Shown here: in pieces, positions 6,377 through 18,287 of the stretch
Numbering within the stretch: position 1 is the first letter of the stretch
Layout: every line of letters starts with the position of its first letter
DNA from: an uncultured Opitutaceae bacterium
Lineage (GTDB): Bacteria; Verrucomicrobiota; Verrucomicrobiia; Opitutales; Opitutaceae
Length of the DNA: 64,000 nucleotides
Assembly (NCBI GenBank): GCA_964547325.1
Contig: CAZJNA010000002.1
Span: 6,652-70,651, forward strand
Direction: 5' to 3'
Notes under the pieces: model-generated
Databases searched by the model: none
Told to the model about the DNA's origin: nothing
Seen by the model: the letters and a program-made list of their open reading frames with translations, nothing else
Made by a program: the position numbers and the translations under genes

Positions 6377-6487
6377 ATGCGCCCTGCAGCAAAACCACCT
6401 TGCCAACCCGCGGAGCCGCGGCTTCCTTGTCCGTCTTCGCGCCCGCGCGGAGCCCTCACCGTAAATCAGAAAACAACACATACCTAA

Positions 6488-7546
<1,059 letters not shown>

Positions 7547-7551
7547 GGCCG

Positions 7552-8796
7552 ATGCCGAAGTTCAAGACCATCCGCGACCTCGACCTCGCCGGCCGCCGGG
7601 TCCTCCTGCGCGTCGATTTCAACGTCCCGCAGGACAAGGCTACGGGAGCCATCACGAACAACCAGCGCATCGTCGCTGCACTTCCCACGATCGCCTATGC
7701 CCTGGAGAAGGGGGCCTCGGTCGTCCTTATGAGCCATCTCGGACGGCCCGACGGCCAGCGGAACGCGAAATTTTCGCTGAAGCCGGTCGCCGCCGAGCTC
7801 GAAAAGCTGCTCGCCCGGCCCGTCGCGTTCCTCGACGACTGCGTCGGTCCGGAGGTCGAGGCCGCCTGCGCCCGCCTCGCGCCCGGTTCCATCGTCCTCC
7901 TCGAAAACCTCCGCTTTCACATCGAGGAGGAGGGCAAGGTGAAGCTCGAGGACGGCACCTCAAGGAAGGCCGACCCGAAGGCTGTCGAGGCATTCCGGGC
8001 CAGCCTTTCGGGGCTCGGCGACGTCTACGTGAACGACGCCTTCGGCACCGCCCACAGGGCCCATTCCTCGATGGTGGGGGTGTCCCTCCCGCAGAAGGCC
8101 GCCGGTTTTCTCATGGAGGCGGAGTTGAACGCCTTCGCATCCGTCCTGGAAACCCCCCGGCGCCCGCTCCTTGCGATCCTCGGAGGCGCCAAGATCGCCG
8201 ACAAGATTCCGCTCATCAGGAACCTCCTCGAGAAGGCGGACGAGATCATCATCGGCGGCGGCATGGCGTACACCTTCAAGAAGGTCATCGACGGGATGGC
8301 GATCGGCGACAGCCTGTTCGACCCGGAAGGGGCGAAGATCGTCGGCGAACTTGCGGCGCAGGCCCGCGCCAAGGGCGTCAATCTCGTCTTCCCGGTCGAC
8401 TACGTCTGCGCGAACCGCTTCGCGCCCGACGCCGACACGCAGCCGGCGGACGACGCGTCCGGAATTCCCGCGGGCTGGATGGGGCTGGACGCCGGGCCGA
8501 AATCGGTCGCCCTGTACCGCAGCGCCATATTGCGGGCGAAGACGATCGTCTGGAACGGCCCCTCGGGCGTCTTCGAATTCGAGAAGTTTGCGGGATCGAC
8601 CAGGGCGATGGCGCAGGCGATCGCCGAGGCCACCGCGGGCGGCGCGACGACGATCGTCGGCGGCGGGGACACGGCCACGGCGGCCAAGAAATTCAAGGTG
8701 GCCGACAAGGTCACCCACTGTTCGACGGGCGGCGGGGCGAGCCTCGAGTACCTCGAAGGGAAAACATTGCCCGGGGTCGCATTTCTGGAATCGTAA
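7552..8796 (+). CDS. pgk: Phosphoglycerate kinase
   Basis: [26 protein letters not shown], with PGK similarity along the full length. ATG at 7552, 6 nt after the gap stop. Confidence 0.95.
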
Positions 8797-8813
8797 AGGC
8801 TCCGACCCATCCC

Positions 8814-9581
8814 ATGTCACCGCGCAAAAAGCTGATCGCTGGCAACTGGAAGATGAACAAGACGGCGGCGGACGGCCTCGCGCTGGCCCAGGAGCTTGTC
8901 GTGGCCGTCGGCCGCCAGCCCTCGGTGGACGTCGTGGTCTGCCCGCCTTTCACCGCGCTCGAGAGCGTGGCGAAGGCCATCGACGGATCGCTGGTCAAGC
9001 TCGGCGCCCAAAACCTTCATCCCGAGGCTTCCGGTGCCTTTACGGGCGAAGTCTCCGCGCCCATGCTCCGCGCCCTCTTCGTCACCCACGTCATCCTCGG
9101 GCACAGCGAACGGCGGACGCTCTTCGGCGAGACCGACGCCTTCATCAACCTGAAGGTCCTTGCCGCGCTCAAGAACCAGCTCCGCCCGATCCTCTGCGTC
9201 GGCGAGCTGCTGGCCGAGCGCGAGGAGGGAAACACCCTCAAGGTGGTGCAGGCCCAGACGGAGCGCTGCCTCGAGGGGGTCGGCAAGGAGCAGGCCGCGA
9301 GCCTGGTGGTCGCCTATGAGCCCGTCTGGGCAATCGGGACTGGAAAGGTCGCGACGGCCGAGCAGGCGCAGGAGGTGCACGCCTTCATCCGGGGCCTGCT
9401 GGCGAAGCTTTTCACCGATCCGGTCGCGCAGCGTGTGAGGATACTCTACGGCGGCTCGATGAAGCCCGCCAACGCGGCCGAACTCCTCGGACAAAAGGAC
9501 ATAGACGGCGGCCTGATCGGCGGCGCCAGCCTCGAGGCCCGGAGCTTCCTGGATCTCGTTTCGGCCGCCGCCGCGGCCTAG
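8814..9581 (+). CDS. tpiA: Triosephosphate isomerase
   Basis: LIAGNWKMNKT, GHSERR and AYEPVWAIGTG motifs. Confidence 0.95.
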   Translation: MSPRKKLIAGNWKMNKTAADGLALAQELVVAVGRQPSVDVVVCPPFTALESVAKAIDGSLVKLGAQNLHPEASGAFTGEVSAPMLRALFVTHVILGHSERRTLFGETDAFINLKVLAALKNQLRPILCVGELLAEREEGNTLKVVQAQTERCLEGVGKEQAASLVVAYEPVWAIGTGKVATAEQAQEVHAFIRGLLAKLFTDPVAQRVRILYGGSMKPANAAELLGQKDIDGGLIGGASLEARSFLDLVSAAAAA

Positions 9582-9674
9582 CAGATTTTTCAACAGCCTG
9601 CTAGCTGCGCCAAGAATCGGGTGGACAACCGGCCGGCGGGAGCATTCAATTTCCACCCGATCGTCACTCCCATC

Positions 9675-9749
9675 ATGTCGCCCCGCTCCCCCATTATCTT
9701 CGGCATTATCATCATTCCCGGCCGCCCCGGGGAGGCGCTGATGGCGTAG
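9675..9749 (+). CDS. Candidate Ile-rich leader peptide (24 aa, MSPRSPIIFGIIIIPGRPGEALMA)
   Basis: ATG 9675 to TAG 9747-9749. Six of 24 codons are Ile, four of them consecutive (9705-9716). It lies between tpiA and cimA and immediately upstream of a terminator hairpin. Confidence 0.55.
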   Translation: MSPRSPIIFGIIIIPGRPGEALMA

Positions 9750-9782
9750 TCGGATCCGAGCCGATCAAACCAACCGCTTCCG

Positions 9783-9821
9783 ACCCCGGGCCGAATTTCG
9801 ATGCCCGGGGTTTTTCTTTTT
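9783..9821 (+). terminator. Intrinsic terminator / attenuator hairpin directly abutting the cimA start codon
   Basis: CCCCGGGC (9784-9791) pairs with GCCCGGGG (9803-9810) across an 11-nt loop. It is followed by TTTTTCTTTTT (9811-9821), and the cimA ATG is at 9822. Confidence 0.65.
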
Positions 9822-11402
9822 ATGAGCAAAAATCCCGTGAAAATCTACGACACGACCCTCCGCGATGGAACGCAGGGCGAGGGGATCAGCTTTTCCGTGA
9901 CCGACAAGCTCCTGGTCGTCGAGAAGCTGGACCAGTTCGGCGTGGACTACATCGAGGGAGGGTTCCCCGGATCCAATCCCCGGGACATCGCCTTCTTCGC
10001 CGAGGCCCGGACGCTCAAGCTTCGCCATGCCCGCCTGGCCGCCTTCGGTTCGACGCGGAGGGCGGGGGTCAAGCCTGGGGACGACGCGCAGCTTCGGACC
10101 CTGCTCGAGAGCGGCATGCCCGTCCTCACGCTGGTCGGCAAGACCTGGCTCCTCCACGTTCGGGAGATCCTTCGCACGACTCCGGAGGAAAACCTGGCGA
10201 TGATCGAGGACTCGGTCCGGCATCTCGTCTCCGAGGGCCGGGAGGTCGTCTATGACGCGGAGCACTTTTTCGACGGCTACCTGGATGATCCCGACTATGC
10301 CCTGCGCACGCTTGAGGCGGCGGCGCGCGGCGGCGCGAGCAACCTCTCGCTCTGCGAGACAAACGGCGGCAAGCTCGTGCCCGAGGTCGAGCGCATCACG
10401 GCGGCCGTCGTGGCGCGCTTCGGCCGCGACAAGGTGGGGATCCACTGCCATAACGACAGCGGCCTGGGCGTCGCGGTCACCCTCGCCGGCGTCCAGGCGG
10501 GAGCCGCGCTGGTCCAGGGGACGATGAACGGCTATGGGGAGCGCGTCGGGAACGCCAACCTGACGACGATCCTTCCCAACCTCTTCCTCAAGATGGGCTG
10601 CACCGCGCCGTGCGCGGCCAACCTGGCCCAGCTCCGGGACCTCTCGCTCTTCTTCGACGAGCTCGCCAACCTGAGGCCCGATCCCAAGGCGCCGTTTGTC
10701 GGCCAGTCCGCCTTCGCGCACAAGGGCGGGCTCCACGCCAACGCCGCGCAGAAGGTCGCCCGCAGCTACGAGCACATCGATCCGGGCCTGGTCGGCAACC
10801 GGACGCGCGTCCTCGTCTCCGACATGGCCGGCCGGAGCAGCCTCGCCCTCAAGGCCCGCGAGCTCGGCCTCGAGCTCGACGAGAAGCGCCCCGAGATGAA
10901 GGGCCTGATCGAGGAATTGAAGGAGAGGGAATTCCGCGGCTACGAGTACGAGGCCGCCGACGCCTCGTTCAAGCTGCTCGTTGCGAAGTGGCTCGGCCAT
11001 CGCCCGTCGTTCTTCGAGGTCGACGGCTACCGCGTGATCATCGAGCGCCACGACGGGCAGCTCTGGGCCGAGGCCACTGTCAAGCTGCGGATAGGCGGCG
11101 AATCCGTCCACACGGTCGCGGAATCGACGGGACCCGTCGGCGCCCTCGACCTCGCGCTTCGCAGGGCCCTCGAAAAGACCTATCCGCGGCTCCGCGAGAT
11201 GTCGCTTCGCGACTACAAGGTTCGGATCCTGGACAGCAACCAGGGCGCCGCTGCGCGCACGCGCGTCTTCGTCGAGAGCGGGGACGGCACCGCGATCTGG
11301 GCCACGGTGGGCGTGAGCGACAACGTCATCGATGCGAGCTGGGAAGCGCTCCGCGACGCCGTGGAGTACATGCTCACAATAAAGGCGCCAGAAGCCGGCT
11401 GA
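9822..11402 (+). CDS. cimA: (R)-citramalate synthase (LeuA/CimA family with C-terminal regulatory domain)
   Basis: MSKNPVKIYDTTLRDGTQGEGISFSVTDKLLVVEKLDQFGVDYIEGGFPGSNPRD matches the CimA-type N-terminus as I recall it from Geobacter CimA. A LeuA-dimer-like C-terminus is present. The track start at 9801 lies inside the terminator stem and was rejected. Confidence 0.8.
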   Translation: MSKNPVKIYDTTLRDGTQGEGISFSVTDKLLVVEKLDQFGVDYIEGGFPGSNPRDIAFFAEARTLKLRHARLAAFGSTRRAGVKPGDDAQLRTLLESGMPVLTLVGKTWLLHVREILRTTPEENLAMIEDSVRHLVSEGREVVYDAEHFFDGYLDDPDYALRTLEAAARGGASNLSLCETNGGKLVPEVERITAAVVARFGRDKVGIHCHNDSGLGVAVTLAGVQAGAALVQGTMNGYGERVGNANLTTILPNLFLKMGCTAPCAANLAQLRDLSLFFDELANLRPDPKAPFVGQSAFAHKGGLHANAAQKVARSYEHIDPGLVGNRTRVLVSDMAGRSSLALKARELGLELDEKRPEMKGLIEELKEREFRGYEYEAADASFKLLVAKWLGHRPSFFEVDGYRVIIERHDGQLWAEATVKLRIGGESVHTVAESTGPVGALDLALRRALEKTYPRLREMSLRDYKVRILDSNQGAAARTRVFVESGDGTAIWATVGVSDNVIDASWEALRDAVEYMLTIKAPEAG

Positions 11403-12819
11403 GATCCTCGGCCACGGTGCCGAGAATCTTCGGGCCGCCGGGAGCCGTCCTGGCCTCCGTGCACTGCTTCATCAACGCAGCAGCCCATGCCTTGAGCGCA
11501 AGGACTTCGGGCGCCGAATGCACGAGGACGCCGATCTCGAAATTGACGAACAGGCTCCGCAGGTCGAAGTTCGCCGAGCCGATGAGGGCGACGCGCTCGT
11601 CCACGATCATCGCCTTGGCGTGCAGCATGATCCTGGGATAGAGAAGCACCCGTCCGCCCGCCTTCCTGAGCTCCCGGGTGTAGTAGCGGCGCGCGAAGTC
11701 GGTGACCGGATGGTTGGACTCTGCCGGCAGGACGAGGGTCACGTCGCGGCCGGCGCGCGCCTTGACGATCAGCGAGCGCAGGAGGACGTCGTCCGGGATG
11801 AAGTAGGGAGTGACGATCCAGATGCTGTGCTCCGCTTCCTGGATCATCGCGATGATCCCCTCGTAGAGCGGATCGCCGGGGACGTCCGGGCCGCTGGCGA
11901 CTACCTGCAGGGTCCCCGCGCCCCGGGCCTCGACGACATGCGCCGGAATCTCCTTGTGAAGCGCCTCCGGCGATTGCCGTGTCGCAAAGCACCAGTCGGC
12001 GATGAAGACCTCGTTCAGGAGCGCGGCGGCCGGGCCCTCGATCTGGGCGCCCAGGTCCATCCACCGCTTCGGCTGCGGCTCGGCGCCCATGTATTCATAG
12101 GCGATATTTCGCCCGCCGATGATCGCCGTCGAATGATCGAATATCGCGATCTTCCGGTGGTTGCGCAGATTCGCCGAGGTGCGCGATCCGAATGGAAGGA
12201 CCGGCATGAACCGGCCGACCTCGCCGCCGGCCCGCCGGATCGGATTGACGAAATGCATGCTGGAGACGAAGCAGCCGAAGGCGTCGAGGAGAAGCCGCAC
12301 CTTGATCCCATCGGCCGCACGCTCCGCCAGGAGCTGGACCAGCCTGCGGCCGGTCTCGTCGCGTCCGAGTATGAAAGTCCCGATGTGTATCTGGTGCTTG
12401 GCGCCGCGTATCAGTCTCTCGAGGGCCCTGAAGTCCTCCTCGCCGGTCGTCAGCAGGCTGAGCCGGTTTCCCCCGGCTGGCGCGCATCCTCCGGCCGCCG
12501 TCACGGTGTCGGCGACCGCGGGCGCCAGAGGGGGAACGGCGGTCGCGGCGGCTCCCGGAAGCGTGGGGAGGAGGGGAGACTTCCGCCCCGCGATCCTGCG
12601 GAGCTTGCGGCCGCCGATAAGGAGGTAAAGCGGGACGCCGACATACGGGATCAGCACGATCCCCAGGAGCCACGCGAAGGTGTTCGCCGGCGCGCGCTTC
12701 TCGCTCAGCAGGCGGGCGACGAGGAAGAAAGCCAGGACGAAGCCCGCGATCGCGAAGAAATGGGGGACGTAGCCGTGCGCCAGAAATCGCTCGAAGGGTT
12801 CGCGCAGATGGGCCGGCAT
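11374..12819 (-). CDS. cls: Cardiolipin synthase (PLD superfamily, two HKD motifs)
   Basis: Two N-terminal TM helices, then HKD motifs NHRKIAIFD and LHAKAMIVDERVALIGSANFD. Its 3' end overlaps the cimA 3' end by 29 bp (convergent). Confidence 0.85.
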   Translation of the reverse strand: MPAHLREPFERFLAHGYVPHFFAIAGFVLAFFLVARLLSEKRAPANTFAWLLGIVLIPYVGVPLYLLIGGRKLRRIAGRKSPLLPTLPGAAATAVPPLAPAVADTVTAAGGCAPAGGNRLSLLTTGEEDFRALERLIRGAKHQIHIGTFILGRDETGRRLVQLLAERAADGIKVRLLLDAFGCFVSSMHFVNPIRRAGGEVGRFMPVLPFGSRTSANLRNHRKIAIFDHSTAIIGGRNIAYEYMGAEPQPKRWMDLGAQIEGPAAALLNEVFIADWCFATRQSPEALHKEIPAHVVEARGAGTLQVVASGPDVPGDPLYEGIIAMIQEAEHSIWIVTPYFIPDDVLLRSLIVKARAGRDVTLVLPAESNHPVTDFARRYYTRELRKAGGRVLLYPRIMLHAKAMIVDERVALIGSANFDLRSLFVNFEIGVLVHSAPEVLALKAWAAALMKQCTEARTAPGGPKILGTVAEDLSRLLAPLL

Positions 12820-12901
12820 CACCCGTCAGAAAATACAGCGGGCGGCATCTGGCAACCACCCGCTCGGCTTTATGAGTCGGATCCCGCGCCCTGGTAAGCC
12901 C

Positions 12902-16208: not shown

Positions 16209-16294
16209 GGTGGGTTACTCAAGTGGCCAACGAGGGCGGACTGTAAATCCGCCGGCTAACGCCTTCGATGGTTCGAATCCATCACCCACCACCA
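16209..16294 (+). tRNA. tRNA-Tyr (anticodon GTA), long variable arm, encoded CCA
   Basis: Acceptor GGTGGGT/ACCCACC, anticodon stem GCGGA/TCCGC with loop CTGTAAA, T arm GATGG-TTCGAAT-CCATC, 86 nt. Confidence 0.93.
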
Positions 16295-18211: not shown

Positions 18212-18287
18212 TGGAGCCGACAGCCGGACTTGAACCGGCGACCCATGCTTTACGAAAGCATTGCTCTACCAACTGAGCTATGTCGGC
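18212..18287 (-). tRNA. tRNA-Thr (anticodon CGT), encoded CCA
   Basis: The reverse complement reads GCCGACA TA GCTCAGTTGGTAGAGC A ATGCT TTCGTAA AGCAT GGGTC GCCGG TTCAAGT CCGGC TGTCGGC T CCA, 76 nt. Confidence 0.93.

Follow-up and report, generated by a model that had tools for sequence, protein, structure and literature searches.

A candidate isoleucine-sensing leader-peptide attenuator upstream of the citramalate synthase gene cimA in Opitutales

Described amino acid attenuators and the cimA leader

In the trp leader of Escherichia coli (trpL), a ribosome halted on the regulatory codons frees an RNA segment that pairs with the 5′ arm of the terminator, and a ribosome at the stop codon prevents this pairing; the terminator is the favored structure, with the antiterminator forming first. 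Here we describe a leader that appears to follow the same four-segment textbook logic, in which the position of the ribosome decides the pairing, in a stretch of 64,000 nucleotides (nt) from an uncultured Opitutaceae bacterium, referred to below as the window. The leader lies between tpiA and cimA, the gene for citramalate synthase, which catalyzes the committed step from pyruvate and acetyl-CoA into the threonine-independent formation of 2-oxobutyrate and isoleucine (Ile). From its sequence, its conservation and its modeled folds, we consider it likely that cimA is controlled by an Ile-specific, ribosome-mediated leader-peptide transcription attenuator. The leader has all the features that define a classical leader-peptide attenuator at the sequence level: a short open reading frame (ORF), rich in codons for the end product of the pathway, precedes a biosynthetic gene; its frame and its regulatory codons are kept in orthologous leaders while the remainder diverges; a G/C hairpin with a U-tract stands between the leader ORF and cimA in 12 of 12 orthologous leaders; and, in silico, an antiterminator that excludes the terminator sits where the position of the ribosome can decide. 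Unlike in trpL, the 1:2 protector is not conserved in cimA leaders, some of which have a corresponding pairing (Box0:Box1, below).

The leader of the E. coli ilvGMEDA operon (ilvL) is built in a similar way. There, an Ile run (ATT ATT ATC) is followed within a few nt by a G/C-rich segment, GUGCGGGG in the MG1655 sequence, that is complementary to the terminator 5′ arm CCCCGCAC; next come the stop codon and, ahead of a branched-chain amino acid biosynthesis gene, a G/C hairpin followed by a U-tract. The peptide tails are also similar (IIIPPCGAALGRGKA in ilvL, IIIIPGRPGEALMA in the cimA leader). The first-pass annotation of this DNA had drawn attention to this likeness, and the IlvL tail that it quoted is correct, the MG1655 peptide being MTALLRVISLVVISVVVIIIPPCGAALGRGKA; the resemblance is one of design, with no homology. 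At the nucleotide level, blastn-short gave only a trivial 9-nt match of the GGGGTTTTT type between ilvL and the cimA leader. The two also differ in what they would sense, since ilvL is multivalent, with leucine (Leu), valine (Val) and Ile codons, whereas cimA leaders are Ile-only and contain no Val. Moreover, the cimA leader belongs to another gene and another phylum, uses one palindromic hexamer three times and holds its stop codon inside the antiterminator at a 15-nt spacing. It is analogous, not homologous, to ilvL, and shares homology with no other described attenuator.

Outside Proteobacteria, leader-peptide attenuators are known for ilvBNC in Corynebacterium and for ilv-leu in Staphylococcus and Listeria (PMC10272879, PMC11857589, PMC5794164, PMC5864092). 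Like the cimA leader, they combine branched-chain genes, small ORFs with cognate codons and a terminator/antiterminator pair; unlike it, they belong to other phyla, genes and sequences and are mostly Leu- or Val-rich or mixed, and none acts on cimA or in Verrucomicrobiota. According to a 2010 survey (Naville and Gautheret, PMC2965389), leader peptides had until then been found only in Proteobacteria and Actinobacteria, to which the survey added Firmicutes. T-box leaders on leuA-family genes, described in Bacillota and on leuA of Geobacter and Pelobacter (PMC2494555), likewise place a synthase of the LeuA/CimA family under attenuation by amino acid supply through a terminator and an antiterminator, but they sense uncharged tRNA directly and do not need translation. 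The idea of a T-box on Geobacter cimA was discarded, as no Rfam family was found in 20 cimA loci (Geobacter-like, Firmicutes and Verrucomicrobiota loci among them) and the literature consulted names leuA only. A full-text literature search returned nothing relevant on a leader peptide or attenuation for cimA or citramalate synthase, nor on attenuators in Verrucomicrobia. The mechanism itself is textbook, and the surprise to specialists would be moderate; what the present reading would do is extend classical leader-peptide attenuation to Verrucomicrobiota and to cimA, neither of which we found described in the searchable literature.

Locus, leader ORF and spacing in orthologous leaders

The gene order in the window is gap (6500-7546), pgk, tpiA (8814-9581) and then cimA, in agreement with the neighbors first assigned to this spacer. 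A protein search returned citramalate synthases of Opitutaceae/Opitutales (Verrucomicrobiota) as the nearest homologs of the window CimA, which, by its family score (listed below), is a bona fide citramalate synthase. Re-reading positions 9400-10000 recovered, in place, all sequence features that the first-pass annotation had claimed upstream of cimA; the pattern is real and not due to chance. The comparison drew on collections of genomes and metagenomes, which gave 160 cimA loci, and on 10 more loci obtained by exact-protein look-up (cited below by L numbers). Twelve loci, the window and 11 other Opitutales contigs with CimA proteins 69-92% identical to that of the window, share a common architecture: a promoter-like box, an Ile-rich ORF, a first CCCGGG box (Box1), a hairpin around the stop codon (P2), and a terminator made of two further CCCGGG boxes (Box2 and Box3) with a U-tract. 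The corresponding features of the window, all on the + strand, are as follows.

9622-9650, + strand: candidate promoter (tentative), with a -35-like box TGGACA (9622-9627), a 17-nt spacer and a -10-like box TTCAAT (9645-9650), and an A-rich stretch upstream.
9675-9749, + strand: leader ORF of 24 codons plus TAG (ATG 9675, TAG 9747-9749), peptide MSPRSPIIFGIIIIPGRPGEALMA, read from the sequence, its frame kept in 12 of 12 orthologous leaders.
9693-9716, + strand: putative regulatory Ile codons, ATT ATC (9693-9698) and ATT ATC ATC ATT (9705-9716), read from the sequence.
9717-9721, + strand: Box0 (CCCGG), an optional part and possible protector, pairing with 9727-9731 in the absence of a stalled ribosome; a 5-bp G-C hairpin in folds.
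9725-9732, + strand: Box1 CCCCGGGG with its CCCGGG core at 9726-9731, the predicted 5′ strand of the antiterminator, from conserved spacing and nascent folds.
9732-9781, + strand: P2 hairpin around the leader stop, predicted to place Box1 beside Box2; 9732-9737 pairs with 9775-9780, with further inner pairs.
9782-9812, + strand: predicted intrinsic terminator hairpin, the Box2 core (9785-9790) pairing with the Box3 core (9804-9809); free energy -21.5 kcal/mol.
9811-9821, + strand: U-tract TTTTTCTTTTT (U5CU5), adjoining the cimA start codon; the only 11-mer with at least 10 T on either strand of the 64-kb window.
9822-11402, + strand: cimA, (R)-citramalate synthase, the gene that would be regulated (TIGR00977, 662.7 bits, cut-off 450).

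In the window, Ile takes up 6 of the 24 leader codons, including the IIII at 9705-9716; a run of the form (ATH)4 occurs once in 64 kb, both strands counted, against 0.067 expected. The first eight leaders were analyzed for composition. Ile makes up 42 of their 184 residues (23%, compared with 4.5% in neighboring proteins), Val is absent (0%), and Leu is scarce and not enriched. Within the 75 nt preceding their stop codons, 43 of 46 ATH triplets share the frame of the stop (binomial p = 1.4e-17). With Ile alone enriched among the three branched-chain residues, the predicted sensor is specific for Ile, as expected where the enzyme serves the Ile branch alone. Such an Ile-only sensor would provide independent regulatory evidence that a LeuA-family enzyme serves Ile through the citramalate route, and not leucine, in bacteria that are mostly uncultured. 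Among orthologous leaders, ATT and ATC interchange synonymously in the Ile codons, and the stop codon, aligned at one position in all 12, can be TAG, TAA or TGA; that its identity varies at a fixed position argues for translation of the leader.

We also surveyed 152 cimA upstream regions from many phyla for Ile-rich small ORFs, defined by at least 4 Ile in 8 codons, and found 12 on the forward strand and 5 on the reverse strand, whereas shuffled sequences gave none. L084 and L147, the sources of two of the reverse-strand ORFs, score on the forward strand as well, and these two ORFs most likely mirror the same ATT runs. Two other ways of reading the leader were set aside: a 42-amino-acid in-frame extension starting at GTG 9621, which lacks conservation and runs across the -35-like box, and a 2-codon mini-ORF, ATG GCG TAG (9741-9749), which is probably incidental, the position of its ATG being TTG, TCG, GAC or GGC in orthologs. 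In the window only, this mini-ORF, which shares the stop of the leader, begins 5 nt after GGGGAGG (9729-9735), a potential Shine-Dalgarno (SD) sequence.

Downstream of the leader stop, after 34 nt, the terminator arm CCCCGGGC (9784-9791) pairs with GCCCGGGG (9803-9810), and the helix reaches G9782-U9812 and comprises three additional inner pairs. This hairpin is seen in the minimum free energy (MFE) fold and in the centroid fold alike. Three CCCGGG hexamers within 100 nt form a single cluster in the window, against about 0.34 expected; the window has a G+C content of 65.9%. A program-run terminator scan of the window made no call on the hairpin of the cimA leader because its loop limit is 8 nt.

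The spacing of these elements is regular where a ribosome would act. Across the 12 leaders, ORFs are 22-28 codons long and hold 3-7 Ile codons, the last of which lies 8-12 nt from Box1 (9 nt in 8 of 12), and 14-16 nt separate Box1 from the stop, with 15 nt in 10 of 12. The distance from the stop to Box2 (28-39 nt), the terminator loop (6-14 nt) and the N-terminal portion of the ORF are variable. Fixed spacers of 9 and 15 nt beside variable ones elsewhere point to selection on ribosome geometry, rather than to mere recent common ancestry. This regular order (9 nt, Box1, 15 nt, stop) would allow precise predictions of ribosome footprints in attenuation. The U-tract starts exactly 11 nt from the cimA ATG in all seven tpiA-linked members (the window, L161, L163, L081, L169, L084 and L168) and lies 22-54 nt from it in L009, L147, L010 and L002. 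Since the module is also present behind other upstream genes (L002, L007, L009, L010 and L147), it belongs to cimA and not to the 3′ end of the glycolytic operon. The proposal had been made conditional on the small ORF and its Ile run recurring in orthologous spacers, and the 11 further Opitutales upstream regions do carry an Ile-rich ORF, a CCCGGG within it and a terminator. In an alignment of the spacers, which had been proposed as a check for conserved Ile codons and compensatory changes in the stems, the Ile codons are conserved, the terminator contains one pair with a double change, C-G to A-U, in three sequences (by RNAalifold), and Box1:Box2 shows no covariation.

A promoter between tpiA and the leader is plausible and remains tentative. 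Ten of the 12 orthologous leaders have, 21-47 nt ahead of their start, an A-rich stretch and then T[GC]GACA or TTGACA. A program-run sigma-70 scan of the window made no call at 9622-9650, because it demands an A at position 2 of the -10 box. No SD sequence precedes gap, tpiA, the leader ORF or cimA (6470-6499, 8784-8813, 9645-9674 and 9792-9821), and the context in which the leader starts, ctcccatcATG, is similar to that of gap (cctcccATG) and that of tpiA (catcccATG), which suggests SD-independent initiation in this organism. A C-rich (c)tccc or atccc thus precedes the gap, tpiA and leader starts, and a pure U-tract precedes cimA.

Folding of the leader RNA and the proposed switch

We modeled the nascent RNA at the stage before Box3 exists, treating the Ile codons as masked by a ribosome. 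Under these conditions, the antiterminator, in which Box1:Box2 is stacked on P2, formed in 12 of 12 sequences, and with it the pairing of the leader CCCGGG with the terminator 5′ arm that had been proposed from the window alone. Its predicted free energy ranges from -19.5 to -38.3 kcal/mol, compared with -13.7 to -22.3 for the terminators of the same 12 sequences, and is -28.5 kcal/mol in the window. Given that the terminator is always part of the full-length MFE structure, the switch would be kinetic and co-transcriptional, and not a choice between two folds of equal energy. The mutually exclusive structures anticipated by the first-pass annotation are therefore found in nascent-transcript folds only and not as two MFE folds; in thermodynamic terms the same holds for trp.

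Based on these folds, we propose the following sequence of events. A dedicated promoter, located between tpiA and the leader, would start transcription, and a ribosome would translate the 24-codon leader as RNA polymerase proceeds. When charged tRNA-Ile is scarce, the ribosome would stall at the Ile codons (9693-9716). Relative to the P site, the mRNA channel of the ribosome reaches from about -15 to +15 nt. The stalled ribosome would then hide at most the first 1-2 nt of Box1, leaving Box1 and P2 exposed, and Box1, 9 nt past the last Ile codon, would pair with Box2, stacked on P2, in one long antiterminator (the structure of -28.5 kcal/mol). With the antiterminator complete before Box3 is transcribed, no terminator would form and the polymerase would read into cimA. 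When Ile is plentiful, the ribosome would reach the stop codon, occupy about 9732-9760, melt the 5′ strand of P2 and abut Box1; with P2 melted, Box2 would pair with Box3 and the transcript would end in the U-tract (9811-9821). The output would fit the signal, an Ile-codon sensor acting on the committed enzyme of the Ile route. One step of the original proposal had to be revised, namely that a ribosome at the stop covers 9725-9732: the end of Box1 is 15 nt away from the stop, at the 5′ edge of the ribosome. Box1 would be held against the ribosome, and what the ribosome would have to melt is P2, the helix that presents Box1 to Box2.

A hairpin equivalent to P2 is present in all orthologs, and each of the eight sequences tested gave a negative z-score for it (-0.45 to -3.1). 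The 5′ and 3′ strands of P2 pair better with their own partners (mean -12.4 kcal/mol) than across sequences (-10.9 kcal/mol; permutation p = 0.008). The support that the z-scores and the duplex permutation lend to P2 is modest. RNAalifold, run on a MAFFT alignment of the 12 sequences, returned a consensus of the terminator alone, and recovered no P2 because the 3′ strand of P2 is misaligned. Folding of the whole spacer gave z = +0.16, that is, no global structure signal. As for a protector, Box0:Box1 comprises 5 bp in the window (9717-9721 with 9727-9731) and has analogues in L081, L084 and L002 and not in all orthologs. Since ribosome-free nascent RNA folds into the antiterminator in five of eight members, read-through, and not super-attenuation, may be the default.

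Counterevidence, alternative explanations and other cimA leaders

Several observations weigh against attenuation by a translating ribosome. The terminator is present in the full-length MFE structure whatever region is masked, and P2 is there too. In the window, P2 is no more stable than its shuffles (z = -0.69). Covariation support for Box1:Box2 is impossible, because the three boxes are one invariant palindrome. A naive fold permits Box1:Box2 to form across a ribosome parked at the stop, so that the exclusion of this pairing is a matter of steric reasoning, and the trp-like protector Box0:Box1 lacks conservation. The leaders of L163 and L168 hold just 3 Ile codons each, and the -10 box of the candidate promoter is weak and poorly conserved. 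Finally, some relatives have no such leader: the tpiA-cimA spacer is 2-29 nt long, with neither leader nor terminator, in L083, L162, L167 and L170; L166 has a terminator between tpiA and cimA and no leader ORF; and Opitutus terrae (L164) has a plain promoter upstream of cimA.

These points bear on three other explanations. It is extremely unlikely, in our view, that the hairpin and U-tract do no more than terminate the gap-pgk-tpiA operon, with an Ile-rich ORF that arose by chance and with cimA being transcribed from its own or a read-through promoter without any sensing of Ile. Such an explanation would account for the place of the element downstream of tpiA, for the terminator that L166 keeps without a leader ORF and for the constant presence of the terminator in full-length MFE folds. 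However, the ORF and terminator also precede cimA in the five loci that lack tpiA there, and the hairpin lies 200 nt past the tpiA stop, with the terminator abutting the cimA ATG. Nor would chance be expected to yield the in-frame enrichment of Ile (p = 1e-17), a fixed stop position served by three triplets and the unique (ATH)4. The leader RNA could instead be a switch that responds to uncharged tRNA, to a protein that binds RNA or, through an aptamer, to a small molecule, with the ORF incidental, which we regard as very unlikely. Neither a T-box nor a riboswitch nor any other family reached the Rfam gathering score in the leader region or in 20 related loci, and none did so in the window beyond two tRNAs; the best sub-threshold match (18.7 bits) is to an unrelated small RNA and runs through the terminator. 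The invariance of CCCGGG at all three positions would be compatible with a conserved protein or ligand site, and the evidence for P2 stems in part from conserved sequence (GGCG/CGCC, GGAG/CUCC) and not from covariation. Upstream of Box1, however, there is no conserved structured domain, only in-frame Ile codons with ATT/ATC variation, and the stop codon, which varies in identity and not in place, again argues for translation.

A third explanation accepts that the leader senses Ile and places its output mainly at the level of translation or mRNA stability: the hairpin would block SD-independent loading of ribosomes on cimA, the antiterminator would free it, and termination would be secondary. 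The 11-nt distance between the start of the U-tract and the cimA ATG in the seven tpiA-linked members, which puts the hairpin within the initiation footprint, speaks for it, as does the lack of SD sequences at neighboring genes. The 22-54 nt that separate U-tract and ATG in L009, L147, L010 and L002 do not fit such a role, and a G/C stem followed by 5 or more U has the canonical form of an intrinsic terminator, with the only such U-tract in 64 kb; we judge this explanation, too, very unlikely. Transcription attenuation by a ribosome on the Ile codons is thus the reading that we prefer.

Relatives without the leader have CimA proteins up to 91% identical to that of the window, and the comparison of these loci shows fast turnover of the cimA regulatory region among close relatives. 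The hairpin of L166 may be a plain terminator. This patchy presence offers a natural series on the gain and loss of an attenuator. A promoter-like motif, cccTTGCCA-N17-TAnnnT, stands about 10 nt upstream of the cimA ATG in O. terrae (L164), L003-L008, L018 and L025.

Ile-rich small ORFs of differing design precede cimA in other Verrucomicrobiota: L036, L040, L045, L047, L050 and L110; L039 and L118; L022; L032 (Akkermansia-like); and L120. In the first of these groups (L036, L040, L045, L047, L050 and L110), the ORF lies about 130-205 nt upstream of cimA, the peptide ends in ..IRIxxGLxxA directly before the stop, and a hairpin encloses the stop codon; in one example, MGNRPDIRLTTRISFGLIRA followed by the stop, a GGACUC...GAGUCC hairpin with a U-run surrounds the stop codon. 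In L039 and L118, GCAAUCA in the Ile-codon region is complementary to a downstream UGAUUGC. These ORFs suggest widespread sensing of Ile codons ahead of cimA across Verrucomicrobiota, and such leaders may have arisen more than once. A joint reading, which we put forward as possible but short of probable, is that Ile-only control of cimA evolved repeatedly in this phylum and took three or more architectures unrelated to one another (the triple-CCCGGG type of Opitutales, the Verrucomicrobiaceae type with ..IRIxxGLxxA before the stop, and that of L039 and L118, where the Ile-codon region pairs downstream), with rapid gain and loss between relatives. The Opitutales type would then be a minimal three-box device without a conserved protector, in which the terminating ribosome serves as the anti-antiterminator; if this is true, it would explain both the strict 15-nt spacing between Box1 and the stop and the burial of the stop within the antiterminator.

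Antisense ORFs across the leader region were considered and rejected, as they are located inside tpiA or cimA or have no family matches. At its other end, cimA (+ strand) overlaps by 29 nt (11374-11402) a convergent gene of the phospholipase D family, which occupies 11374-12822 on the minus strand and matches the Pfam families PLDc_2, PLDc and PLDc_N; an identical 29-nt overlap is found in L161-L163 and L165-L169. The two tRNA genes of the window, its only Rfam matches at gathering score, are located at 16209-16291 (+ strand) and 18215-18287 (- strand).

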